In this document: piece by piece, positions 1-62,773 of the stretch
How the letters are laid out: every line of letters begins with the position of its first letter
How positions within the stretch are numbered: the stretch's first letter is position 1
Source of the DNA: Candidatus Saccharimonadia bacterium
GTDB lineage: Bacteria; Patescibacteriota; Saccharimonadia; CAILAD01; BJGX01
Assembly: GCA_039738635.1 (NCBI GenBank)
Contig: JBCLLN010000001.1
Location: 42,806-106,805 of the forward strand
Direction: 5' to 3'
Length of the DNA: 64,000 nt
The notes under the pieces: model-generated
Seen by the model: the letters and a program-made list of their open reading frames with translations, nothing else
Databases searched by the model: none
What the model was told of the DNA's origin: nothing
Translations under genes and position numbers: made by a program

Positions 1-438
1 AAATATTTTGAATGGGAAAGAAAAGGCATTCCACTCAGGCTTGAAGTTGGACCTAAAGATATTCAAAAAGAATCAGTTGTAGTCGTGGACAGAATCCTAG
101 GCAAGAAGGAGTTTGTTCAAAATGTAAAAAGAGCTCCTTATATAAAGGAAAGTTTGGAAAATATGCAAAAAACCTTACTCGAGAAATCAAGAAAGTTTAG
201 GTTAGAAAATACTCGTGAGGTTTCAGATTATGAAGAATTTAAAAAAGTTATGAATGAAAAATCCGGTTTTATCTTTGCTCATTTATGTTTGAATAAAAAT
301 TGCGAGGAAAAAATAAAAGAAGAGACAAACGCTAGCAGTAGATGTATCCCTTTTGATGGGGGTCTAGATAATACTGGTAAATGTATTTATTGCAAGAAGG
401 ATGCTCCTAATAAAGTCTTGTTTGCGAAGGCTTATTAA
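1..438 (+). CDS. proS: Prolyl-tRNA synthetase, 3' portion (5' truncated at window edge); archaeal/eukaryotic-type with C-terminal Zn-binding domain ending in conserved Tyr
   Basis: Frame-1 ORF is open from base 1 with no stop until 436-438. The translation KYFEWERKGIPLRLEVGPKD...CKKDAPNKVLFAKAY matches the ProRS C-terminal region and the Cys-rich Zn-domain/terminal Tyr signature. Confidence 0.75.
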   Translation, partial: KYFEWERKGIPLRLEVGPKDIQKESVVVVDRILGKKEFVQNVKRAPYIKESLENMQKTLLEKSRKFRLENTREVSDYEEFKKVMNEKSGFIFAHLCLNKNCEEKIKEETNASSRCIPFDGGLDNTGKCIYCKKDAPNKVLFAKAY

Positions 439-446
439 TCTTCGTT

Positions 447-3400
447 ATGAAAAATGTAGTTTCTTATTTTGAAAATCAGGTTACTAAATATCCTGATAAG
501 ATCGCTATTGAATATAAAAATTCAGTTATCACCTATTCAAAACTTAATGAGAAGTCAAACGAGCTTGCTCATTATTTATTGGGACTCAATGTTAAAAAAG
601 ACGATACGATCGCCTTGTTTTTAAGCAAATCAGTCGGGATGATATCGAGTATTTTTGGTATAGAAAAAACAGGTTGCGCTTACTTGCCCATAAATACCAA
701 TTACCCGATCAGTCGAGTGTTAGATATTTTAAATGATTCAAAAAGTAGGGTTTTGGTGACTGAACATAAGTTTAAAAATATAGCTCTGGAAGTTTTCTAT
801 AATGCTCCAATTGTAGAAAAGTTGATTTTTCTCGACAAGGATAATGGGCCTAAGACAGATTTCACCAATAGTAAAAAGTTATGGAATTTCGTATCCACTA
901 AAGATGATTTAATAGAATCTTCCGGATGGATTAGTAGTTATACGAAAAAGCCATTTAGTCGTTTAGAAATTGATGAACTGGTCGGAAATGTTGTTTCAAA
1001 AATTTCCGCTAATCTTAATAAAGATGCTACGGTATTGGAAATCGGGTCAGGTAGTGGTCTGATCGTAAAAGAAATAGCTCCAAAAGTGAGCAAGTACATT
1101 TGCGCGGACATATCTGACATAGTTTTGAAAAAATCAAAACAAATATTTCAGCATGAAGGAATAAATAATGTCGAATTTTTGCAAATAGATAATAACAACG
1201 CCTTTGATTTGAAGGATAAAGTAGATGTTGTAATTATTAACAGCGTTGTTCAATTTTATATAAACTATGGCGAATTAGAAAAAGTAATATTGCATTGTTT
1301 AGATAAGATAAATGAAGGGGGCATTGTTTTTATTGGCGATATTAGAGACCCTGAATTACGGGATTCCTTTTATGAGTCATTGTTACAGGAAAGTGAATCT
1401 ACCATTGATAAGAGCAGAGTCAATGCTATTGCCTTGAAGAAAAGTCTCGATAAAGATTTGTATGTGAACAAAAAATTCTTTATTGAGCTTTCAAAAAAAG
1501 CCACGAGAGTAAAATCCGTGGAGCTTTCCAATAAAATTGGCAAGCTCAAGAACGAGCTTTCGCTGTATAGGTATGACGTAGTCATTAAAAAGAAAAATAA
1601 TAGTACATCAAAAAATCTTGATAATTCAATAGTGTGTTTACCTGACATAAGGCATCTATCTGTTAATAATCCAAATATTGCAATTGATAATCAACAACTT
1701 GCGTATGTGATCTATACATCTGGTTCAACTGGAAAGCCCAAAGGAGTAATGATTGAACATGGTTCATTGTTCAACAGACTCAATTGGATGCAGAATGAAT
1801 ATTTTTTAGATGGGAATGATAAGATACTATTCAAGACCCCATATTCGTTTGATGTTTCTGTTTGGGAAATATTTTGGTGGTCGATGTACGGTTCACAACT
1901 CGTAATTCTTGAGGATGGCTTCGAGGGTGACCCACAAAAAATATTGGAAATAATTAGGATAAAAAATGTATCTATTTTGCATTTTGTTCCGTCGATGTTG
2001 AACGTGTTTCTTTCTTACATTGATACAAACAAAATTAATCTCTCCAGCGCCTCCCCTAAAAAGGTTTTTACGAGTGGTGAGACTTTGACGGTCGATAGTG
2101 TGAATAGATTTAAAAGATTGTTCAGCGTAAACGGCACAGAACTCCATAATCTTTATGGTCCCACAGAAGCTGCTATCGATGTCACGTATTTTGATTGCGA
2201 CAATCTATCTAAATCGAGCAAATTTGTACCTATCGGTAAGTCTATTCCTAATAATAAGGTTTTCATTGCCGACAAGAATCTAAACAAGGTGCCAAAGGGT
2301 GAAGAAGGTGAAATAGTAATTCAGGGAATAAATTTAGCAAGAGGTTACCTTAATAGTAAAGTAAAGACTGATGAGAGTTTTGTTATAGATCCATTTGGTG
2401 TTAGGACGTACAAGACCGGAGATTTTGGGGTTGAGCTTCCTGATGGAAATATTAAGTATTTGGGCCGTAAAGATAATCAGGTAAAAATCAGGGGTAATAG
2501 AATAGAGTTGGATGAAATTTGGAAAGTGATTTTGGAGAACTCGAGTATTCCAGAGTGTTGCGTTATTGATAGTGATGAGTTAAATGAGGATAAAAAAGTA
2601 ATCTGCTTCTACATATCCAACCAACCAATACACGAAGAAGGTCTTGTTCAAATTTTAGGACGTTATCTTCCAGCTTATTCCATTCCAAATCTTTTTATCA
2701 AAATTATAGAAATACCTACAACTTTACACGGAAAACTGGACAGAAACAAGTTGTTAAGTCTAGTTAATCAGGATGTTTCTATTGTTGCTGATAGTGAACA
2801 AAAAACATATACACAAACCCAACAATCTATTATTAAAATACTAAAGAATCATCTCAAAACAAAAGTAGGGATTGATTCTGATTTTTTCAGAATGGGTGGC
2901 AATTCCCTGCTTGCAATGGTTGTTATCAATGAAATTAACACCGAATTTAAAATAAAATTGTCAATAAGCTCTTTCTTTAAAAATCCGACTCCGTCGAAAC
3001 TTGCACATATCATTGATACACAAGAAAAGGAATTACGAAATGTAAATTTTAATCTGAAAATTCCAGCCGGAATATACCCTGCAAGCCATAATCAGATAAG
3101 AAGTTTTTTTCTTAATAACCTCGATAATTTTAGATTTTATAACATTGTGCAAGTTTGCGAATTGACTGCAAACACTGATTTAGATCGCCTAGAAAAGGCA
3201 ATAGAACTTGCTTTAAATAGCCATGACATTTTCAGAACTCTCCTTGTTGAGCACAAAGGTGGCATTTATCAAAAAATAGATAAATCTTCGAAGATAAAAG
3301 TGTCGCGACTTGAACTGGATGAAGTCGGGATGGAACAATTTATCAAAAAACAAAAAGAGTCTAGGATTGATCTGTGTAAAGATTTACCGATAAAGATTTT

Positions 3401-6400
3401 TCTAATAAAGAAAGGGCTGAAAAATCTTTTACTAATGAATATTCATCATTCAGCTTGCGATGCCAGGTCCCTTGAAATTTTAAACACCCAAATTTCCAAG
3501 TTTTATATAGATCCAAATAGTAAAGGTGGTAACCTGCCTAGCACATATATTGATTTTTCTTTGGCCGAAAGAGATACGGTGGCAATTGAAATGGAGAAGT
3601 CAGAATTTTTCTGGAGAAACTACTTACATGCATATACAGATACAAAATTGCCTATTGATCTAAATTTCAAAAGAGATGGCACTTCGGATGGATCACGATT
3701 ATTGAAACTCAAGATTAGTAAGAGTATTTCTAAAAGCATTTTAAAATATTGCCATAATAATGGCATTACAGAATTTAACCTTTTTATAACGCTTTTCACC
3801 ATTTTCTTATCAAAGATATCTTCCGAGCCAGAAGTTATTATAGGCACACCTATCGCCAATCGTATTGAAGAAAATTTTTGGGAAACCATTGGGTACTTTA
3901 CAAACACCGCACCCTTAAGGCTCAAGGTTGATAATAAATCAAGCTTTAGAGAACTATGTTCAGCCTTCAGGGGAAACTACTTGGAATGCATGGATAACGC
4001 TTTTGTTCCTTTTGACAAACTTATCGACAAGATAGGAGTTAAAAGAATTCCAAATACAAACCCTGTTTTTCAAACGCTATTTAGCTTCAAGGAAGCCTCC
4101 ACATTAAGGGAAGATTATATTCTTTCTGGGTCGCAGATAGTTTCTGATGAAGCTGGAGATATGAGTTTGATTTTTGACGTGATAAAGAGAGAAGCTAATT
4201 TTGAAATAAACTTAAGATTCAATTCTAAATTATTTCTACAGGATACTGTCAATAGATTTTTAGAGCACTTCGAGATCTTGGTACAAGCTATCTTTTCACA
4301 AGATATGGTTGATACGGAAATCGGAAAAATTAAAATAATGAATGAGAGACAAACCAAAGAGATAATTAGATTGTCTACGGGCAAAAGAGTGCCGTTTAAT
4401 AAAAAAAAGAAACTTTTCGATTATATTATAGAAGGTGCCCTCTTGAATCCGAAACGTATTGCCATCATCGATCATGACCGTTCTATAACGTACAAGGAAT
4501 TGGCTGAAAGAATCTTTAATTACGCCTATTTCTTGAAACAAAATGGGATAAAAGAGGGTGATTCTGTTCCAGTGATCATGGATAGGAATATTGCTTCGCT
4601 GGTATCAATATATTCAGTTATGTATTGTGGAGCGGCATATATACCCGTTGTTCCAGAGTATCCTGTCGAGAGAATCAGAAATATTATTGAAAGTAACGGG
4701 ATTTCAACTATTGTGAATGCAAGTAATTCTCACGAACTTGAAACCGAGCTAAGGAAAACATCACCCGAATTGTCTTGGTTGGATTACGCCGAGAATATCA
4801 GTGATATAAAGGCATTAGCTTTCAAAATCAAAAGGGATGAAGCAGATATTGCCTGTATATTTTATACATCCGGCTCAACGGGCAAACCAAAGGGTATTCT
4901 GTGTCCCCATTCTGGATATATAAATATTTTTGATTACATCGCACAAAAATATTCTTTAACCAAGAAGACGGTAGCTGGTCATACCTCCAATTTTACATTT
5001 GATATTTCTCTCGGGGTAATGAACGCCGTGTTCAGCAAGGGCGGTACTCTGATGCTATTTTCGTCCGATGAACTAAAAGATCCTGAACAAATCAGGATGG
5101 GTTTGATAAGAAACAAAATTAACTTTGTGCATTTTGTACCTACCATCCTAAATCATTTAAATCTAGAAGACATAGAATTGGAGTCCCTCGCTTCGGGTGC
5201 TGAAAAAATTTCACCGAGTTTAGCAAAAAGTTTATCTACCAAATTCAGTTTTTTCTTTGAGTACGGTCCGACTGAATCATCAATTTTTACAACAGTGTGG
5301 CAAAGGAGTGGTGAAGAGGTCATTGACGTAGTCCCTATCGGGAAACCAGTTGACAATACTAGAGTATATATTTTGGATGAGAATTTAAATTTCGTGCCAG
5401 TCGGAACTCCTGGCGAGATTTATATTGCTGGCGTTGGGGTGTCTAATGGGTATTTGAATGATCTTGATAAGACAAAAGAAGTTTTTATTCAGGACAAACT
5501 GAAGCCGACACAATACATGTATAAAACCGGGGATATCGGAAAATTTATTCATGACGGCAACATCGTATTCCTAGGCAGAAAAGACAATCAGATAAAAATC
5601 GGTGGTTACAGAATTGAAATCGGTGAAATCGAGAATCTGGCATTGAAGCACGAAGATGTATCCTCTTGTTTTGTTGACCTTCAAACAAATGACTCTGGAT
5701 TTTCAAGTATTATTTTGTACTACTCCTCAAAGAAAAAAATTGAGGGCCGAATTTTGAAAGCGTACTTGAGAGAATTCCTCCCTAATTACATGATCCCGGC
5801 TAAGGTGGTTTATGTGTCCAAGATGCCAAATAGGGTGAACGGGAAGATAGACGTCGATAAACTCAGACAAATCAAGGATGCATACGATATTCTCAACGAA
5901 GACTTAACACCAGAACAGAATATCATTAAAAATATATGGTGTAAGACACTAAACATTACCACACTAGATCTGTACAGTGACTTTTTTGAATTGGGCGGTA
6001 GTTCTTTGAAGATACTAGAGACAATCTATTATTTAAGGAAGGACTGTAATATAACTGTCTCAGTATCTGATTTTTACAGAAATACTATATTCAAAAACTT
6101 TTGTGATATTGTTTACTCTAAAAATGAACCTACTGGTGAGATGGCTAAAAATTTATTTGAAAAACCGATAAAACAAAAAATTAAAATACGAAATTTAACA
6201 ACAAGCAATAAAAAGGTTTTATTGACGGGCTCCACTGGTTTTCTTGGTGCACATATACTTAAGGAATTGATCGTTTCAGATTATTTCAGTAGTATTTGCT
6301 TACTTTTGCGCGGTCGAGATTTATTTGAAGCAGAGGGTAAAATTAGAGAAGAATTTAAGTTTTATTATCCCCATATAGATTTAGCAAAGACCAAGGTGAT

Positions 6401-7256
6401 CTTGGGTGAGCTTTCCATTAAGGATCTGGGAGTATCCAAAAAAGATAAATCGATTTTAACGGATGTCGACATCATAATTAATTGTGCAGCTAAAGTGCAG
6501 CATCTTGGAAAGCAAGAGGACTTTGAAAAGATCAATGCATATTCAGTAAAAAACATCATTGAAACTATAGGAAAGAAAGATCTTGAGTTTATTCAAATAT
6601 CTACATTGTCAATATTTGGAAAAGCACCTAATGACAGGGATGTTGTTTATGAGAATGACCTAGGAATAGGTCAAACTTTTCATAATTTTTATGACGAGAC
6701 GAAATTTAAGGCAGAGGTTTATCTAGAAGATTTTTATAAATCTGGGGGTAGAGGCGGTATTTTTAGATTGGGAAATATCATGAATGAATCTGACACAGGG
6801 CTTATGCAGAAGAATCTTGAAGAAAACGCATTCACGATGATGTTTCAATCAATTATCAACACAAAGAATCTTTGGGGGTTAGATAAGTATATAACAAATA
6901 TATCGCCAGTCGATAAATGTGCTGAATTTATTGTTAAATCAATCTGTAATTATAATTTACAAGGCAATACTGTTAATGTTTATAATCCAAATCTTATTTC
7001 CATGGGCGAATTAGTACAATTCGTAAACCACATGGGAAAATACGATATATCTGAGCTAAACAATGAGTCGGAAATGCCTGAAAAATATGTACCCTACTTA
7101 ACTAATTACTTAAATGCGGAAAAAAGAAGTGCTGTAAGGTACGATAGCACCAACTTCAATAAAATAGCAGAAGATCTGAAGTTTTCTTGGCCAATAATAG
7201 ACGCACCCTATGTGTCAAAAATTATTAAGTATATGATAAAATGTAAAATAATATGA
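447..7256 (+). CDS. Two-module non-ribosomal peptide synthetase: A(MT-interrupted)-T-C-A-T-R
   Basis: A1: A3 motif YTSGSTGKPKGV near nt 1714, NLYGPTE, YKTGD, GRKDNQVKIRGNRIELDEI. SAM-MT motif I VLEIGSGSG near nt 1032, inserted between A2 (AYLPINTNYP) and A3. T1: FFRMGGNSLLA near nt 2883. C: HHSACDA near nt 3445. A2: YTSGSTGKPKGI near nt 4862, EYGPTE, YKTGDIG, GRKDNQIKIGGYRIEIGEIE. T2: FFELGGSSL near nt 5982. R: Rossmann LLTGSTGFLGAHIL near nt 6221. Confidence 0.9.
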   Translation: MKNVVSYFENQVTKYPDKIAIEYKNSVITYSKLNEKSNELAHYLLGLNVKKDDTIALFLSKSVGMISSIFGIEKTGCAYLPINTNYPISRVLDILNDSKSRVLVTEHKFKNIALEVFYNAPIVEKLIFLDKDNGPKTDFTNSKKLWNFVSTKDDLIESSGWISSYTKKPFSRLEIDELVGNVVSKISANLNKDATVLEIGSGSGLIVKEIAPKVSKYICADISDIVLKKSKQIFQHEGINNVEFLQIDNNNAFDLKDKVDVVIINSVVQFYINYGELEKVILHCLDKINEGGIVFIGDIRDPELRDSFYESLLQESESTIDKSRVNAIALKKSLDKDLYVNKKFFIELSKKATRVKSVELSNKIGKLKNELSLYRYDVVIKKKNNSTSKNLDNSIVCLPDIRHLSVNNPNIAIDNQQLAYVIYTSGSTGKPKGVMIEHGSLFNRLNWMQNEYFLDGNDKILFKTPYSFDVSVWEIFWWSMYGSQLVILEDGFEGDPQKILEIIRIKNVSILHFVPSMLNVFLSYIDTNKINLSSASPKKVFTSGETLTVDSVNRFKRLFSVNGTELHNLYGPTEAAIDVTYFDCDNLSKSSKFVPIGKSIPNNKVFIADKNLNKVPKGEEGEIVIQGINLARGYLNSKVKTDESFVIDPFGVRTYKTGDFGVELPDGNIKYLGRKDNQVKIRGNRIELDEIWKVILENSSIPECCVIDSDELNEDKKVICFYISNQPIHEEGLVQILGRYLPAYSIPNLFIKIIEIPTTLHGKLDRNKLLSLVNQDVSIVADSEQKTYTQTQQSIIKILKNHLKTKVGIDSDFFRMGGNSLLAMVVINEINTEFKIKLSISSFFKNPTPSKLAHIIDTQEKELRNVNFNLKIPAGIYPASHNQIRSFFLNNLDNFRFYNIVQVCELTANTDLDRLEKAIELALNSHDIFRTLLVEHKGGIYQKIDKSSKIKVSRLELDEVGMEQFIKKQKESRIDLCKDLPIKIFLIKKGLKNLLLMNIHHSACDARSLEILNTQISKFYIDPNSKGGNLPSTYIDFSLAERDTVAIEMEKSEFFWRNYLHAYTDTKLPIDLNFKRDGTSDGSRLLKLKISKSISKSILKYCHNNGITEFNLFITLFTIFLSKISSEPEVIIGTPIANRIEENFWETIGYFTNTAPLRLKVDNKSSFRELCSAFRGNYLECMDNAFVPFDKLIDKIGVKRIPNTNPVFQTLFSFKEASTLREDYILSGSQIVSDEAGDMSLIFDVIKREANFEINLRFNSKLFLQDTVNRFLEHFEILVQAIFSQDMVDTEIGKIKIMNERQTKEIIRLSTGKRVPFNKKKKLFDYIIEGALLNPKRIAIIDHDRSITYKELAERIFNYAYFLKQNGIKEGDSVPVIMDRNIASLVSIYSVMYCGAAYIPVVPEYPVERIRNIIESNGISTIVNASNSHELETELRKTSPELSWLDYAENISDIKALAFKIKRDEADIACIFYTSGSTGKPKGILCPHSGYINIFDYIAQKYSLTKKTVAGHTSNFTFDISLGVMNAVFSKGGTLMLFSSDELKDPEQIRMGLIRNKINFVHFVPTILNHLNLEDIELESLASGAEKISPSLAKSLSTKFSFFFEYGPTESSIFTTVWQRSGEEVIDVVPIGKPVDNTRVYILDENLNFVPVGTPGEIYIAGVGVSNGYLNDLDKTKEVFIQDKLKPTQYMYKTGDIGKFIHDGNIVFLGRKDNQIKIGGYRIEIGEIENLALKHEDVSSCFVDLQTNDSGFSSIILYYSSKKKIEGRILKAYLREFLPNYMIPAKVVYVSKMPNRVNGKIDVDKLRQIKDAYDILNEDLTPEQNIIKNIWCKTLNITTLDLYSDFFELGGSSLKILETIYYLRKDCNITVSVSDFYRNTIFKNFCDIVYSKNEPTGEMAKNLFEKPIKQKIKIRNLTTSNKKVLLTGSTGFLGAHILKELIVSDYFSSICLLLRGRDLFEAEGKIREEFKFYYPHIDLAKTKVILGELSIKDLGVSKKDKSILTDVDIIINCAAKVQHLGKQEDFEKINAYSVKNIIETIGKKDLEFIQISTLSIFGKAPNDRDVVYENDLGIGQTFHNFYDETKFKAEVYLEDFYKSGGRGGIFRLGNIMNESDTGLMQKNLEENAFTMMFQSIINTKNLWGLDKYITNISPVDKCAEFIVKSICNYNLQGNTVNVYNPNLISMGELVQFVNHMGKYDISELNNESEMPEKYVPYLTNYLNAEKRSAVRYDSTNFNKIAEDLKFSWPIIDAPYVSKIIKYMIKCKII
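955..1350 (+). other. SAM-dependent methyltransferase domain embedded in NRPS A1 between core motifs A2 and A3 (approximate bounds)
   Basis: VLEIGSGSGLIVKEIA (motif I), DVVIINSV (motif II-like), NEGGIVFIGD (motif III-like). Flanked upstream by AYLPINTNY (A2) and downstream by YTSGSTGKPKG (A3). Confidence 0.7.
6180..7253 (+). other. C-terminal thioester reductase (R) domain of the NRPS, SDR-type, NAD(P)-binding (approximate bounds)
   Basis: KVLLTGSTGFLGAHILKEL (TGxxGxxG Rossmann motif) follows directly after the second PCP and runs to the stop; Y..K region YDETKFKAEVY. Confidence 0.7.
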
Positions 7257-8458
7257 GTAATATCTACAGTGAATTGTATCCTTTTCATTCTTGGGGAATG
7301 AAAATCGTAAGAGCAGAAGGAGTTTATTTATTTGATGAAGCTGGTAGAAAATTTATAGACTTAACTTCTTCTGCGAGTGTTGCAAATATTGGATATGCAA
7401 ACGAGAGAGTAATCTCAACGATGCGAACACAACTTGGTAAATTAATTTTCTGTCCGCCGTGGTGCATATCAGACGAAGCAGAAGAGCTCTCAGGAAAATT
7501 GATACGGTTATTTCCAAAATATTTGGATACGATTTTGAGAGTTACAACCGGCAGTGAATCCGTAGAAGTCGCTTTGAAGTTGGCGAAAAAATATACAGAA
7601 AGATCTAAATTTTTAAGTTTTGAACATTCTTATCATGGACACACAATCGCCTCAATGGCGATTGGCATGAATGATGGAACTAAGAAAGACTTCCTACCCC
7701 TCATAGAGTCAGACACATTGAAACATCCACACATTGCCAACGGGATACATATGACCGAATCAGATTTATCCAAGACTCTTGCTGAAATAGAAACAAGACT
7801 TAGTACAAAGGAATATGCGGCATTCGTTACGGAAACAATGGCTACAAGCGCGGGGAATTATATGCTTCCAAAAAGTTTTTTCGCGCACCTTAAAGAAATT
7901 TGTAGCAAATACGGGACATTATTGGTTATCGATGAAGTGTTAACAGGATTTGGAAGAGCTGGAAGAATGTTTTCTTTTGAAAGATTTGAAATCCAGCCAG
8001 ATATTGTTTGTATAGCCAAGGGGCTTGGGTGCGGTTATTCTCCGATAGCTGCCGCAATTACAAAAAAAGAAATTGCTGAAGGTTTTGATTATTTCGCAAC
8101 TTTCGCATGGAATCCATTAGCTTGTAAAACAGCGTCTGCTGTTTTAGATGAATATAAGAGATTAGATCTTGTAAAAAACTCTGAAAATGTGGGCTCAGAG
8201 GCTTTGTTGGAATTACAACAAAAACTTGGTAGCAATTTAAATGTTAAAGAAATTAGGGGGGCAGGCCTAAGGATCTCGATTGAGTTTAACAACGAACATT
8301 TCTTTAAGAAAGTAAAAGACAAGCTGTTGGTAAATGGTATTTTTTCTGGCTCGGCTGACTTGCCCAGTATATTAATTATTAGTCCGCCCCTATGTATTTC
8401 TTTAGAGGAAATGAAGTATGTTATTGCCACCATAGTTAATTGTGTTAACAATGAATAA
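7253..8458 (+). CDS. Class-III PLP-dependent aminotransferase (acetylornithine/GABA aminotransferase family)
   Basis: DEVLTGFGRAGRMF and PLP-lysine context CIAKGLGCG. ATGA start/stop overlap with the NRPS stop. Confidence 0.8.
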   Translation: MSNIYSELYPFHSWGMKIVRAEGVYLFDEAGRKFIDLTSSASVANIGYANERVISTMRTQLGKLIFCPPWCISDEAEELSGKLIRLFPKYLDTILRVTTGSESVEVALKLAKKYTERSKFLSFEHSYHGHTIASMAIGMNDGTKKDFLPLIESDTLKHPHIANGIHMTESDLSKTLAEIETRLSTKEYAAFVTETMATSAGNYMLPKSFFAHLKEICSKYGTLLVIDEVLTGFGRAGRMFSFERFEIQPDIVCIAKGLGCGYSPIAAAITKKEIAEGFDYFATFAWNPLACKTASAVLDEYKRLDLVKNSENVGSEALLELQQKLGSNLNVKEIRGAGLRISIEFNNEHFFKKVKDKLLVNGIFSGSADLPSILIISPPLCISLEEMKYVIATIVNCVNNE

Positions 8459-9104
8459 AATATCTGACGTGTTAATTTATCGGATCCCACTTACTAGAAC
8501 TGATAAATATACACCCAGAAATACAAATAATAATCTGCCATGTACTAACGCAAAAAATAAGTTTAGTGCAGGTCTTTACTTCTGCTCACTAATTTTGAAA
8601 AAAGATTTTAGAGTTTTTGCCAAAAAGTATATTTTCAATACAAATGGAAAGCCCATTTTGGAATCAGGAGAATGTGAATTTAGTATCTCCTATACGGATG
8701 ATCATGTATATATAGCAATAGTTAGAAGCGATATGATTGGTCTTGACGCTGAGAAGATTAAAGTTATTAATCTCAATGTTTCTAAGGAATTTATGTCAGA
8801 AAGAGAATTAGTAAAATTAAAGAGAACAACAAATAAATACAAATACTTCTATAAAATATGGACACTTAAGGAATCGTATATAAAACTCATTGGTTCAGGA
8901 ATTGATAATTCAATAACCGACATAGAATTTATCGAGGATAAAAACGGAAAAATCTCCATAGCTAAAGAAATTACCCCAAAAATATATTTTAGTAATTTTG
9001 TATCAAAAGATTGTATAATATCAGTTGCTTCGTTTAATTTAGTTAATTTCGAGATTATAGAATTTGATAACGCGAAAGAATTTTTAAAAAAATATGGCTA
9101 TTAA
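8451..9104 (+). CDS. Sfp-type 4'-phosphopantetheinyl transferase
   Basis: PPTase motifs GLDAEKI (GxD..E) and WTLKESYIKLIG (W/F-x-x-KE-x-x-x-K). The ORF begins at 8442; the ATG at 8451 (MNKISDVL) is chosen as start. Overlaps the aminotransferase stop. Confidence 0.7.
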   Translation: MNKISDVLIYRIPLTRTDKYTPRNTNNNLPCTNAKNKFSAGLYFCSLILKKDFRVFAKKYIFNTNGKPILESGECEFSISYTDDHVYIAIVRSDMIGLDAEKIKVINLNVSKEFMSERELVKLKRTTNKYKYFYKIWTLKESYIKLIGSGIDNSITDIEFIEDKNGKISIAKEITPKIYFSNFVSKDCIISVASFNLVNFEIIEFDNAKEFLKKYGY

Positions 9105-9840
9105 TACCCCAAATAACTTACCAGAGAAGCAATTAAAGGCATTTGCGGATATTGCAGAGAATCTTTTAAGTAATACAGAAATTGACACTTTATTTTTTTC
9201 AGGTTCTTTTTATCATGGCGACTCTGGACCTAATTCAGACCTAGATTTTATTGCAATTACGAAACCTGAATTTGATTATTCTCAGAGAATACAAGACATA
9301 AGTAATGGAATATTTTATGAACTATTTATTTATTCTGAAAATCAATTAAAAAAATCTTTTGAACGAATGGACTATCAGGACATGCATATGGTCGGTTATG
9401 GTTTCTTGGTTTTCTCAAAGAGTCAAAATTTTGAAAGTATTAAAAAACTTGCCAAAAGCTTGTTTGAAAAGGGACCAGCCAAGATATCAGATAATCAATT
9501 TGAATATGAAAAATATTTATTGTGGGATAAATATCATGATATTCTAGATATTATAATTAAGGATTCTAACTTAGCTGAGTCGCTTATGAATATATTGTTA
9601 TGGGATGCCCTAAGGCTTTTATATGTTGATAAGCGTATCTGGTTTCCTAAGCAGAAAAGATTATTTGAATCACTTATTAAGATTGATAGCGATATCTATA
9701 ACTTGGTTTGTGAGTTTCTAAATTCAGATAATGATAAGAAATATTTATTAGGTAATATTGCAAGAATAGTAGAAAATATAATTTACCCAAATAAACTTTC
9801 TGATCCGTTCATCTGGCAGAGTGAGAAAAAGGTCTTGTGA
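9094..9840 (+). CDS. Pol-beta-fold nucleotidyltransferase domain protein (aminoglycoside/KNTase-like NTase fold)
   Basis: FFSGSFYHGDSGPNSDLDFIAI fits the hG[GS]...D.D nucleotidyltransferase signature. Overlaps the PPTase gene by 11 nt, so it is the last gene of the operon. Confidence 0.5.
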   Translation: MAINTPNNLPEKQLKAFADIAENLLSNTEIDTLFFSGSFYHGDSGPNSDLDFIAITKPEFDYSQRIQDISNGIFYELFIYSENQLKKSFERMDYQDMHMVGYGFLVFSKSQNFESIKKLAKSLFEKGPAKISDNQFEYEKYLLWDKYHDILDIIIKDSNLAESLMNILLWDALRLLYVDKRIWFPKQKRLFESLIKIDSDIYNLVCEFLNSDNDKKYLLGNIARIVENIIYPNKLSDPFIWQSEKKVL

Positions 9841-10482: not shown

Positions 10483-11274
10483 TTAACTCCCTGCCTTCCA
10501 CTTCTCATTGGAATCTATATATTTTCCGACTGTCGGGTGAGTTGTAAATGTCGATGGAAACCAAAGTATTACATAGGCCTCGTCCTCTTTGCTTGCCCTA
10601 GCTTCACCAAAGACAACTCCGCCATTATATATAGCGATTAAAGTTGTTTCAGATTTACTACCCATACTTTTTACATATGCTACGTTTGCCTGTATCTGCT
10701 CTTGTGTAGCAGAAAAGCCGTCGGGATACGGAAGTTGTGGGTCATAAGAATATTCCAGAACTTCTTTATCAGTATAAATATGGGCACCAAACTCAGGTTT
10801 TCCAGCTTTTTTCGCCAAGTCGGTGAATATTGCTTTAATTTGAGTTTTGAATGCGTCATTTGATAAATCAACTGGATTAATGAGTACATAATATTGTTCG
10901 TTCTTGGCAATACCTACATTATACTTTGTTTTAACTATTTCGTATTTTGGGATAACTACAAGTTCTTCTTTTTTCGTCTCTGCATTCTGTTGTGTTTTTG
11001 TTTCAGAGTTTGGTTTATTATTAGCTGGCTGTTCTACATCAGTATTTACTATAGCTGTCATAATCGGTAACATAACAATAGCTACAACAAAAGTAACTGC
11101 AATTTTAATATTTTTGCTCCAACTTGACTTAGCCCAAGCATACCAAATTAAAAAGTAAGGAAAAAATAATATTACTAAGACTAATCCCCAGCCGTGCTTA
11201 TACCATTCTTTTTTCTTGACTTCGGGTGTTTTAACTTCTGGCGTTGTTGGTTCTTTATTCTTTTTTTCTTCCAT
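10483..11274 (-). CDS. Membrane-anchored protein, paralog 1 (conserved N-terminal leader+TM, unique C-terminal domain)
   Basis: N-terminus MEEKKNKEPTTPEVKTPEVKKKEWY is identical to the downstream paralog, followed by a TM segment; 263 aa. Confidence 0.5.
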   Translation of the reverse strand: MEEKKNKEPTTPEVKTPEVKKKEWYKHGWGLVLVILFFPYFLIWYAWAKSSWSKNIKIAVTFVVAIVMLPIMTAIVNTDVEQPANNKPNSETKTQQNAETKKEELVVIPKYEIVKTKYNVGIAKNEQYYVLINPVDLSNDAFKTQIKAIFTDLAKKAGKPEFGAHIYTDKEVLEYSYDPQLPYPDGFSATQEQIQANVAYVKSMGSKSETTLIAIYNGGVVFGEARASKEDEAYVILWFPSTFTTHPTVGKYIDSNEKWKAGS

Positions 11275-11286
11275 AAGTCCTCACTA
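11200..11286 (-). repeat. 87-bp direct repeat, copy 1 (5' coding end + RBS region of paralog 1)
   Basis: Identical to 11824..11910: ataccattcttttttcttgacttcgggtgttttaacttctggcgttgttggttctttattctttttttcttccataagtcctcacta. Confidence 0.8.
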
Positions 11287-11898
11287 GTTATGGAACCTGA
11301 AGGCGCCGTAGCGTGTATTCCCATTTATCTTACACTTGATGACTACATTTTTAACAGCTGTTGTATCAGGATTAAACCTTGTGCCGTCACTTTTTGTAAA
11401 TAGTGGGTAAGGGTTGTTGAGTGGACTGTTTGGTTGAAGTGGATTTCTAATAGTTCGTTCATAATCACCGTTTAGCTTGATTTCACATTCGTCCCAAGCG
11501 ACAGTTTCAAGGTTTGTTACTTCAATACCTGGGACATCATAGGCTTTCTTGATTTCAGCTTTTAGGTCGCTAGTATCTTCCTTTGGCTCTTCTTTTTTAG
11601 GCTGTGCAGTTTGTTGTGTCTGGGTGGGCGTTTCGGTAGGGCTAGCAGTATTTGTAGTCGAATTGTTGCTGCCAGTTGACACAACACCCACGACAATCAA
11701 CAAAGCAATTAAGCCTGTTAACACCCATTTTATTTTATTGCTAGCTTTGGTTTTATTCCAAATCCACCATATACCAAAAAGTGGTAAAAATAGTATTGCA
11801 ATCACAACACCCCACCAATTCATATACCATTCTTTTTTCTTGACTTCGGGTGTTTTAACTTCTGGCGTTGTTGGTTCTTTATTCTTTTTTTCTTCCAT
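11284..11898 (-). CDS. Membrane-anchored protein, paralog 2 (same leader, different C-terminal domain)
   Basis: First 25 aa are identical to the 10483..11274 product, followed by a TM (W-rich), a Thr/Asn/Ser-rich linker and a distinct C-terminal domain; 204 aa. Confidence 0.5.
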   Translation of the reverse strand: MEEKKNKEPTTPEVKTPEVKKKEWYMNWWGVVIAILFLPLFGIWWIWNKTKASNKIKWVLTGLIALLIVVGVVSTGSNNSTTNTASPTETPTQTQQTAQPKKEEPKEDTSDLKAEIKKAYDVPGIEVTNLETVAWDECEIKLNGDYERTIRNPLQPNSPLNNPYPLFTKSDGTRFNPDTTAVKNVVIKCKINGNTRYGAFRFHN

Positions 11899-12095: not shown

Positions 12096-12390
12096 TTGAC
12101 AAGGCGCTTATGATGTGCTAAGTTATCCTTACAACTGAATAAGCCAAAAAAGCGATTTAGTTGGGAAAATGGTCCCAACGAGCTGACTTGTGAACCATCC
12201 TACGGGAAAGTAGCAAGCTCCGGAAGAAGTCCGTTATCATACTTCAACCAACGCCACCCCCTGGGTAAACTGAGTTGGTACAGAGGTTAGCCTAGCAATA
12301 GGCTGGCGAAGCAAGGTGGCACCACCATAACGGTCCTTGCAAGTTCTTGAAGCTGTATAGCTTTGGGAGTTTGCAAGGGCTTTTTAGTTG
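12096..12390 (+). ncRNA. Candidate structured non-coding RNA (about 250 nt) or long structured 5' leader; family not identified
   Basis: TTGACA (12096-12101), 17-bp spacer, TAAGTT (12119-12124). No convincing ORF. Long-range complement ggttcacaa (12061) / ttgtgaacc (12188), hairpin AGCCTAgcaaTAGGCT (about 12288-12303), and terminator-like CCTTGCAA(12335)...TTGCAAGG(12378)-GC-TTTTT(12381-85). Confidence 0.2.
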
Positions 12391-41751: not shown

Positions 41752-41964
41752 AGGCTCTCTCCAATACTTTTTAGTTAATGTGCTTGATTACCAAACAAAA
41801 AAATCTTTGGACTAAGCCAAAGAATCTAAAGTTTGAAAATCTATTTAAAAGATTTGTAACCTCTTGCTAGCAAATTTAAGTCTTTTGAACTGCTACAGTC
41901 TTTGGTAATCAAGAATAATTCTAACAGATATGCATAAATATATCAAGCTATTGCTAGGTAGCCT
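41752..41964 (-). promoter_or_regulatory. Candidate rplJ (L10) leader with long-range stem
   Basis: 13-bp perfect inverted repeat CTTGATTACCAAA (about 41789-41801) / TTTGGTAATCAAG (about 41894-41906) in the untranslated region upstream of rplJ. Confidence 0.3.
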
Positions 41965-53965: not shown

Positions 53966-54042
53966 AGGGGTGTAGCTCAGTTGGCTAGAGCGTCGGTCTC
54001 CAAAACCGAAGGCCGCGGGTTCGATTCCTGCCACCCCTGCCA
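53966..54042 (+). tRNA. tRNA-Trp (anticodon CCA)
   Basis: Cloverleaf: acceptor AGGGGTG/CACCCCT, D-arm GCTC-AGTTGGCTA-GAGC, anticodon stem TCGGT/ACCGA with loop CTCCAAA, T-arm GCGGG-TTCGATT-CCTGC, encoded CCA. Confidence 0.85.
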
Positions 54043-62525: not shown

Positions 62526-62601
62526 TGGGGCCGACGGTGGGACTCGAACCCGCAACCTGCTGTTTACAAAACAGCTGCTCTGCCAATTGAGCTACGTCGG
62601 C
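62526..62601 (-). tRNA. tRNA-Thr (anticodon UGU)
   Basis: RC reads GCCGACG-TA-GCTC-AATTGGCA-GAGC-A-GCTGT-TTTGTAA-ACAGC-AGGTT-GCGGG-TTCGAGT-CCCAC-CGTCGGC-C-CCA. Confidence 0.8.
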
Positions 62602-62602
62602 T

Positions 62603-62688
62603 TGGTGCCGGGTGAGAGATTTGAACTCCCGAAGACATAAGTCAGCTGATTTACAGTCAGCCCCCGTTGACCACTTGGGTAACCCGGC
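62603..62688 (-). tRNA. tRNA-Tyr (anticodon GUA), long variable arm
   Basis: RC reads GCCGGGT-TA-CCC...GGG, anticodon stem GCTGA/TCAGC with loop CTGTAAA, long variable arm, T-arm GGGAG-TTCAAAT-CTCTC, ACCCGGC-A-CCA. Confidence 0.8.
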
Positions 62689-62698
62689 ATGTTATTTA

Positions 62699-62773
<75 letters not shown>

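Follow-up and report, generated by a model that had tools for sequence, protein, structure and literature searches.

The closest described relatives of the locus reported here are the dipeptide-aldehyde synthetases AusA/AusB of Staphylococcus aureus (aureusimine/phevalin) and related gut enzymes, in which a bimodular nonribosomal peptide synthetase (NRPS) with the domain order adenylation, carrier, condensation, adenylation, carrier, reductase (A-T-C-A-T-R) is accompanied by a dedicated Sfp-type 4'-phosphopantetheinyl transferase (PPTase). In the myxochelin B system MxcG/MxcL, in PigE and TamH, and in the pathways of actinobacterial polyketide alkaloids, a class-III aminotransferase (AT) comes after the terminal reductase, and the aldehyde becomes a primary amine. 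Family 4 interrupted A domains (A2-Mb-A3), exemplified by TtbB module 5, carry an insertion between motifs a2 and a3. We analysed a 64,000-nt stretch of contig JBCLLN010000001.1 (positions 42,806 to 106,805) from a Candidatus Saccharimonadia bacterium, hereafter the window, which holds a four-gene NRPS cassette in the operon of proS, the gene for prolyl-tRNA synthetase (ProRS). The cassette combines known modules, namely an AusA-type reductase NRPS with its PPTase, a reductase paired with a transaminase, and a family 4 interrupted A domain. New are its ANT/Lnu-like nucleotidyltransferase, its restriction to Patescibacteria and its constant proS partner, and it belongs to no curated equivalog. 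We think it rather likely that the cassette is functional and self-sufficient within the proS operon, and that it makes a dipeptide aldehyde that would be transaminated to an amine and then nucleotidylylated.

The genes, called from a six-frame list of open reading frames (ORFs), all lie on the + strand. The window begins within proS, whose 3' part (1..438; stop codon at 436-438) encodes an archaeal/eukaryote-like ProRS with a ProRS-C_1 domain (Pfam, 83 bits), and the NRPS gene (447..7256, 2269 aa) starts 8 nt further on (TAA-tcttcgtt-ATG). It is followed by a class-III (omega-type) AT dependent on pyridoxal phosphate (7253..8458, 401 aa), an Sfp-type PPTase (Pfam ACPS, 57 bits) and ORF5 (9094..9840, 248 aa), a nucleotidyltransferase with two domains, structurally of the ANT(4')/LinB type. 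The PPTase can be read from GTG 8442 (8442..9104, 220 aa) or from ATG 8451 (217 aa), the latter being the likelier start because 217 aa is the length called in relatives. The NRPS and AT genes overlap by 4 nt (ATGA), the AT and PPTase genes by 8-17 nt depending on that start, and the PPTase gene and ORF5 by 11 nt. All four ORFs are uninterrupted, and a motif scan found every catalytic motif intact. A first-pass annotation of the window had placed these ORFs at the same coordinates, 8 nt after proS, and had called them translationally coupled; the ORF list and the overlaps of 4-17 nt between successive genes bear this out.

Pfam searches of the NRPS returned AMP-binding (476 bits; the split of the first A domain makes three stretches of it), Condensation (225 bits), two PP-binding matches, NAD_binding_4 (116 bits) and a methyltransferase match at residues 180-317. 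Together with NCBIfam models and core motifs, these matches give the order A1(M)-T1-C-A2-T2-R, where M is a methyltransferase domain; this is the order that the first-pass annotation had proposed, with the terminal R domain followed by class-III AT, Sfp-type PPTase and nucleotidyltransferase. Both A domains carry the core motifs TSGSTGKPKG, FDxS, YGPTE, YKTGD and GRKDNQxKI. The catalytic residues on which that earlier proposal had been made to depend are present: the equivalents of Asp235 lie in FDVS468 (A1) and FDIS1518 (A2), those of Lys517 in motif a10 (HGKLD761 in A1, NGKID1798 in A2), and the serine of each GGxSL carrier motif is retained. Carrier T1 (2865..3011, +; PP-binding residues 807-855) has FFRMGGNSL at residue 813, with Ser820 at nt 2904-2906, and T2 (5936..6131, +; the second PP-binding stretch) has FFELGGSSL at residue 1846, with Ser1853 at nt 6003-6005. 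The condensation domain (3069..4364, +) keeps the two histidines and the Asp of its HHxxxDG site, the last Gly being replaced by Ala (HHSACDA at residue 1000). The R domain (6213..7253, +), a thioester reductase of the short-chain dehydrogenase/reductase fold, has TGSTGFLG at residue 1927 and YDETK at residue 2082, and among solved structures the AusA reductase domain is its best relative (4f6c, E 5e-19). With all these A, carrier and condensation features in place, the protein is confirmed, at the level of its encoded motifs, as a complete modular (type I) synthetase. Its best NCBIfam model is AusA (NF047350); the score of 925 bits is under the cut-off of 2500, and the match extends over residues 396-2264 only. 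The PPTase (ACPS, 56.9 bits against a cut-off of 25), whose translation contains IGLD and WTLKESYIK motifs, has AusB as its best model, at 62 bits and below the cut-off of 225. Judged by these scores, the relation to AusA/AusB is one of resemblance, not of membership.

Module 1 offers the clearest view of the product. Specificity codes were read from alignments of the two A domains with a fragment of GrsA-PheA, and the numbering is supported by the fact that this fragment gives its published code, DAWTIAAICK. The A1 segment from motif a3 to a10 (1716..2741, +) reads DVWHFSLIDK, the canonical Ser code in Stachelhaus nomenclature, identical to that of EntF save for I/V at one position. Of 24 family members examined, most keep the code DVWHFSL(I/V)DK, relatives with 36-39% NRPS identity included, and the NCBIfam model for the Ser-activating enzyme EntF has its best stretch on A1. 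Compared with AusA, the cassette therefore has an A1 predicted to be Ser-specific and interrupted by an N-methyltransferase, not one for Val, and its A2 differs as well; the AusA specificities, Val and Tyr/Phe, correspond to neither cassette code.

The M domain (921..1574, +) is inserted between a2 (KTGCAYLPI, residue 74) and a3 (residue 424) of A1. Insertions at this position have been described as methylating either sulfur (type IV, as in TioN) or the backbone nitrogen (type V, as in TtbB), with no O-methylating ones (PMC8341866). By the motif definitions of that study, with motif iii matched in relaxed form, the domain holds all five type V motifs, mb-i, ii, iii, iv and vi (SGWISSY159, VLEIGSGSG196, YICADIS217, DVVIINSVVQ260 and NELSLYRY369) and neither of the two diagnostic type IV motifs; in the NRPS relatives at 36-39% identity the M-domain motifs are partly degraded. 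The locus thus shares with TtbB module 5 both the a2-a3 insertion and the five type V motifs, the predicted substrate being Ser, not Tyr. Because the Ser code and the type V motifs occur together, the first residue is predicted to be N-methyl-L-Ser, with the M domain methylating the nitrogen of the tethered amino acid. The first-pass annotation had left the choice between N- and S-methylation open; the first half of that proposal is retained and the second is dropped. A KtzH-like O-methyltransferase was also set aside, since the M domain of KtzH sits between a8 and a9 (PMC8341866).

The second residue is far less constrained. The A2 domain (4446..5852, +) has the code DIGHAGEIFK, which changes between lineages (DIGHGGEILK, DTLLAGTIFK and DPSRNGTIFK in relatives), and a string search of the searchable literature found none of these codes in any paper. 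The A2 pocket appears roomy and contains Glu322, which is only a hint as to the amino acid selected. A Gly specificity, suggested by a 488-bit match to LgrA in the PDB, was dropped because this score is the sum of two A-domain matches (241 + 244 bits).

The AT is a strong member of Aminotran_3 (281 bits against a Pfam cut-off of 30.5), with a DEVLTGFGR motif and the catalytic Lys in CIAKGLG. Acetylornithine and putrescine aminotransferases and omega-transaminases are the solved structures nearest to it, and it groups with enzymes acting on terminal amines or aldehydes; the NCBIfam matches include PigE, a reductase-transaminase fusion, and no NCBIfam equivalog cut-off is reached. From the named families we propose the following pathway. 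The Sfp-type PPTase would convert T1 and T2 to their holo forms, module 1 would activate L-Ser and N-methylate it through the inserted M domain, and the condensation domain would join N-methyl-Ser to the amino acid chosen by A2. The AusA-like R domain would then release N-methyl-Ser-Xaa as an aldehyde, which the AT would turn into a primary amine, following the logic of MxcG/MxcL and of other thioester-reductase and transaminase pathways. ORF5 would finally nucleotidylylate the product, the free Ser hydroxyl being the obvious acceptor, either as tailoring or as self-protection of the producer. The cassette appears to lack a promoter of its own in the window and may be transcribed by read-through from proS; a scan for promoters and terminators over 1-12.5 kb is uninformative here, since it found promoter-like sites no more numerous than in shuffled sequence. 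While the gene and domain content, the motifs, the Ser code, the type of N-methyltransferase, the nucleotidyltransferase fold and the proS linkage are observed, the second substrate, the aldehyde release, the transamination, the nucleotidyltransferase acceptor and the meaning of the proS link are inferred. As in AusA/AusB, release of a dipeptide aldehyde is expected; the cassette differs from that system in its added AT and nucleotidyltransferase and in its position in the proS operon of a genome of the candidate phyla radiation (CPR). MxcG and PigE are likewise among the matched NCBIfam models, both well under their cut-offs. The substrates of those pathways are unrelated, a catecholate-lysine or a polyketide in place of the predicted dipeptide, and in the cassette the action of the AT on an aldehyde is deduced.

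The predicted structure of ORF5 (pLDDT 92.5) superposes over both domains on ANT(4') and LinB, at 14-16% sequence identity, and the residues S38, D49, D51 and E76, belonging to the pol-beta nucleotidyltransferase motif G[SG]...DxD and its third carboxylate, are invariant in 22 ORF5 homologues. The earlier label of a pol-beta nucleotidyltransferase is upheld by these residues and by the two-domain fold, and is not upheld by Pfam or NCBIfam profile cut-offs, no NCBIfam match being found at all. Unlike the ANT(4') (kanamycin) and LinB (lincosamide) enzymes, ORF5 lies inside a biosynthetic operon, not on a resistance element. The family is small: an exhaustive profile search of 1.84 billion representatives returned 11 proteins at E <= 1e-30 and a halo of 487 at E <= 1e-10, the tested members of which pass NTP_transf_2 at 27-28 bits. 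A word-indexed search found 46 relatives among 5.8 billion proteins, and a scan of species-representative genome contigs found three loci only. Two side observations concern NUDIX domains. One 400-aa representative (P0325) has a NUDIX domain fused to an ORF5-type nucleotidyltransferase, and in one related locus (L034:4799-9794) three NUDIX genes lie within about 5 kb 5' of the cassette, the last being its nearest protein-coding gene upstream. This association hints at a turnover of nucleotide conjugates.

Full-length NRPS homologues with 64-100% identity number about 20; below them come a few proteins of the same architecture at 36-39% and then unrelated larger NRPSs at 33% or less. The close homologues of the NRPS, of ORF5 and of ProRS are labelled Candidatus Levybacteria, Paceibacterota, Nomurabacteria, Parcubacteria and Patescibacteria, and the cassette is a small family found only on Patescibacteria-type contigs. 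Patescibacteria (CPR) are regarded as symbionts with a minimal metabolism, and an intact, compact 9.4-kb NRPS pathway from such organisms would be easy to express. Biosynthetic gene clusters have been called rare in CPR genomes and their role unclear, with peptides made on ribosomes and then modified post-translationally (RiPPs) and a terpene reported (PMC7298704, PMC9765116), and the labels of the homologues fit the reduced-genome setting that had been assumed for the window. Two cultivated Saccharibacteria are reported to be without NRPS or polyketide synthase genes (PMC8694215). In the searchable literature we found no NRPS reported for CPR and no paper pairing Levybacteria with an NRPS.

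We mapped the cassette genes on 35 related loci. The block of NRPS, AT and PPTase genes never varies, ORF5 accompanies it in every case on one side or the other, and proS is always in the operon at loci with enough flanking sequence. In the first arrangement, shared by the window and loci L001, L006, L004/L005 and L024/L025, an archaeal-type proS, with or without a preceding helix-turn-helix (HTH) gene, stands upstream of NRPS, AT, PPTase and nucleotidyltransferase with gaps of 5-18 nt. L033 is a variant of it (HTH-proS-folC-NRPS-AT-PPTase-nucleotidyltransferase), and in L006 an orthologous folC follows the nucleotidyltransferase instead (HTH-proS-NRPS-AT-PPTase-nucleotidyltransferase-folC). 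In the second arrangement (L003 and L011), an HTH gene and the nucleotidyltransferase precede the block and a bacterial-type proS with a tRNA_edit insertion ends the operon, overlapping the PPTase gene by 4 nt; L011 comes from a metagenome-assembled genome (MAG) labelled Saccharibacteria. The third (L012/L013 and L034/L035) has the order nucleotidyltransferase-NRPS-AT-PPTase-proS with an archaeal-type proS and differing upstream flanks. An apparent cassette without proS (L017) was discarded, as the full contig (L033) reads proS-folC-NRPS. No flanking gene other than proS is shared between loci, and the window genes at 10-17.6 kb occur in none of the related loci. Between lineages, of which there are at least four deep ones, identity is 33-40% for the NRPS, 42-57% for the AT and 34-46% for ORF5; such pairwise values point to a long retention of the cassette in Patescibacteria.

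The first-pass annotation had treated proS as a mere neighbour. The adjacency is real; proS is, moreover, the only conserved neighbour, found in the operon of every lineage. The 3' part of the window ProRS is 100% identical to P0186, a 501-aa ProRS, and unlinked ProRS 77-80% identical to the cassette-linked ones, from genomes without the cassette, lie in ordinary housekeeping contexts that differ from one another. L004 and L012 share 73% identity in ProRS and just 39% in the NRPS, and their gene orders differ. ProRS relationships, ((L004,L012),window group), conflict with those of the cassette, and therefore cassette and proS have come together, or stayed together, on more than one occasion. 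In a genome of about 1000 genes, the chance of adjoining a given gene is about 0.2% per independent event, for which reason we take the linkage to be selected. Retention in the proS operon across such deep divergence suggests that the product, or its expression, is functionally tied to ProRS, and on these comparisons we regard a functional coupling of the cassette with ProRS as likely. The most likely mechanism would be co-expression of a target or sensitive enzyme with the compound. Constant embedding in the operon of an essential translation enzyme is the type of signal used in target-directed genome mining and suggests concretely what the molecule may act on; even if the ProRS link were regulatory, the locus would offer a tractable entry to the chemistry that CPR direct at hosts or competitors.

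Several points weigh against the pathway and the coupling as proposed above. No transporter is conserved with the cassette, and the A2 code DIGHAGEIFK matches no specificity code known to us. Dipeptide aldehydes of the AusA type cyclise spontaneously to dihydropyrazinones without any transaminase, and the AT might instead supply a non-proteinogenic substrate for A2. ORF5 falls below the Pfam gathering cut-offs of NTP_transf_2 (18.3 against 21 bits) and Polbeta (20.1 against 26.9 bits), and close homologues of it occur without any NRPS (L029, P0156). Cassette-linked ProRS nest within a smooth continuum of CPR ProRS at 100-60% identity, and no substitutions shared by them were found in a comparison with about 80 presumably unlinked CPR ProRS: five columns separate the window group from these others, and none of the five is shared by the linked ProRS of L004, L012 and L024.

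The chemical part of the proposal has two competitors. The locus could be an AusA-like producer of pyrazinones or dihydropyrazinones, in which the N-methyl-Ser-Xaa aldehyde cyclises on its own N-terminal amine and the AT serves elsewhere, for instance by making the A2 substrate from an oxo or aldehyde precursor. AusA and AusB are indeed the best NCBIfam models for the NRPS and PPTase, no solved structure is closer to the R domain than the AusA reductase, and a code as unusual and lineage-variable as that of A2 would suit a non-proteinogenic substrate. However, the two scores lie far under the equivalog cut-offs (925/2500 and 62/225), direct translational coupling ties the AT to the R domain, the AT is conserved in every lineage, it groups with enzymes of terminal amines and aldehydes, and an N-methylated N-terminal amine would prevent formation of a neutral cyclic imine. 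We consider this outcome unlikely, and prefer transamination of the released aldehyde. Alternatively, ORF5 might stand outside the pathway, as a stand-alone resistance, toxin-antitoxin or defence nucleotidyltransferase (MNT-HEPN-like) travelling with the cassette. Its C-terminal helical domain does resemble HEPN domains; a HEPN toxin was nonetheless rejected, since no conserved Rx4-6H RNase motif is found and matches to defence models are weak, just 15-18 bits. Given also that ORF5 stays with the NRPS in every lineage, at the 5' or 3' end of the operon, and that its best full-length structural matches are small-molecule O-nucleotidyltransferases, a role outside the pathway seems highly improbable. 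NRPS-less nucleotidyltransferases of the ORF5 family are flanked by a SET-domain protein on one side and by an uncharacterised protein of 253 aa on the other (L029:4362-7826 and the context of P0156). The group in L029 is oriented convergently to a proS gene that has 74% identity to the cassette-linked ones, and a second paralogue of the 253-aa protein lies at L029:2537-3298. These NRPS-less homologues may be orphaned immunity genes or what a lost cassette left behind.

Two further explanations would empty the proS linkage of meaning. Were the cassette an assembly chimera, a contaminant contig or a decaying pseudogene cluster, its low GC content would be accounted for (0.28-0.37 against 0.42 in the remaining window, hence 5-10 points below it), as would the two relatives in MAGs labelled Bacteroidetes and Lentimicrobiaceae. 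Relatives show the same GC offset, and these two records, both GTDB species-representative MAGs, are 11.5-kb contigs holding solely a CPR-type proS and the cassette (L009, CAYLSW010000050.1, Lentimicrobiaceae; L010, CAIJYD010000116.1, Bacteroidetes), probably binning errors in the public databases. The uninterrupted ORFs keep every catalytic motif, and 54 kb of housekeeping genes are contiguous with the cassette in the window. Independent assemblies from ENA, JGI, Logan and NCBI show the identical proS junction, so an assembly chimera is ruled out; with this recurrence and the contiguity, the contamination that the earlier annotation had asked to be checked finds no support, and the explanation as a whole is exceedingly improbable. 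A more serious contender grants that the adjacency is genuine and denies it a function: a promoter-less cassette needs a constitutive operon, spreads between relatives through recombination at the conserved proS and for that reason stays next to it. Between proS and the NRPS gene there is no room for a promoter, the linked ProRS look like ordinary housekeeping enzymes, the position of the cassette on either side of folC shows local mobility, and a cassette GC below that of the host in all loci suggests horizontal spread. Against it stand the three gene orders, with proS upstream in one and downstream in two, and the discordance between ProRS and cassette relationships. Moreover, the partner in L003 and L011 is an unrelated bacterial-type ProRS, which recombination through an archaeal-type proS cannot explain, and chance adjacency to one given gene has the low probability stated above. 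On balance a functionless adjacency appears unlikely to us, and selected coupling remains the preferred reading.

Classically, an aminoacyl-tRNA synthetase (aaRS) gene in such a place would be read as a self-resistance copy of the target. Cluster-borne aaRS genes include mupM, borO and obaO. Both self-resistance and biosynthetic roles have precedent among such genes, with the AlaRS AcmD (ascamycin) and the IleRS-like SbzA (SB-203208) as examples (PMC12945691). The known cluster aaRS are extra, diverged copies, whereas the cassette ProRS is an ordinary housekeeping-like orthologue without shared substitutions, and no second proS lies within the 64-kb window. Co-localisation of an aaRS gene with biosynthetic genes is thus seen here, and the sequence divergence that marks a self-resistance aaRS is not; a limited literature search turned up no ProRS case of self-resistance within a biosynthetic cluster. 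The GC content of linked proS in L001, L003, L004 and L006 is host-like, not cassette-like. Because of this, the identity continuum and the lack of shared substitutions, a modified "resistant" ProRS target is not supported by the sequences compared.

The product itself may bear on proline. Its invariant part is, by prediction, N-methyl-Ser, which shares with proline the character of a secondary amine, and the second residue is lineage-variable. Genes for tRNA-Pro(UGG) lie close to several loci: at L034:9871-9942 (+), 58 nt 5' of the nucleotidyltransferase-NRPS-AT-PPTase-proS operon; at L018:12305-12376 (-), 1.6 kb 3' of ORF5; and at L029:4331-4402 (+), just 5' of a SET-nucleotidyltransferase-253-aa-proS group without an NRPS. 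The window has no tRNA-Pro gene. The secondary amine and the nearby tRNA-Pro(UGG) genes favour a link to proline decoding. A specific version of this idea is that the product is a natural ProRS inhibitor whose N-methyl-seryl head mimics proline in the active site, which we rate as decidedly unlikely in its full form. In that scheme the reduced, transaminated second residue would be a linker to which the ANT-like enzyme attaches a nucleotide, and the nucleotide might yield a bisubstrate or Trojan-horse compound resembling an aminoacyl-adenylate, or keep the compound inert inside the producer. The co-transcribed proS would provide dosage immunity, and orphan ORF5 homologues near proS and tRNA-Pro (L029) might be immunity genes; these parts share the low likelihood of the whole. 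If true, this would be the first NRPS-derived metabolite directed at ProRS, and CPR episymbionts would have in it a chemical weapon or a means of host control.

Beyond the cassette, the window contains an Rfam L10 leader (41788-41923, -), a tRNA-Trp gene (53966-54042) and a cluster of Thr, Tyr and Thr tRNA genes (62526-62773). These are ordinary housekeeping content and are therefore consistent with a genuine chromosomal contig. Tandem paralogous genes for predicted membrane proteins follow the cassette (10483-11274 and 11284-11898, -); their 25 N-terminal residues are identical (MEEKKNKEPTTPEVKTPEVKKKEWY), they share a direct repeat of 188 nt at 79% identity, they match no Pfam family, and none of the related loci has them. 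A terminator-like hairpin with a 20-pair stem and a T-run (12333-12380, +) coincides with a rise in GC content from about 0.35 to about 0.45 and may mark the edge of the low-GC segment. In L006, the stretch 5' of HTH-proS (L006:3041-6211) carries a ThiF-like gene and then a gene with faint nitroreductase-family matches, between two histidine-kinase genes; it may represent a RiPP-type cluster of its own, such as CPR genomes have been reported to contain.

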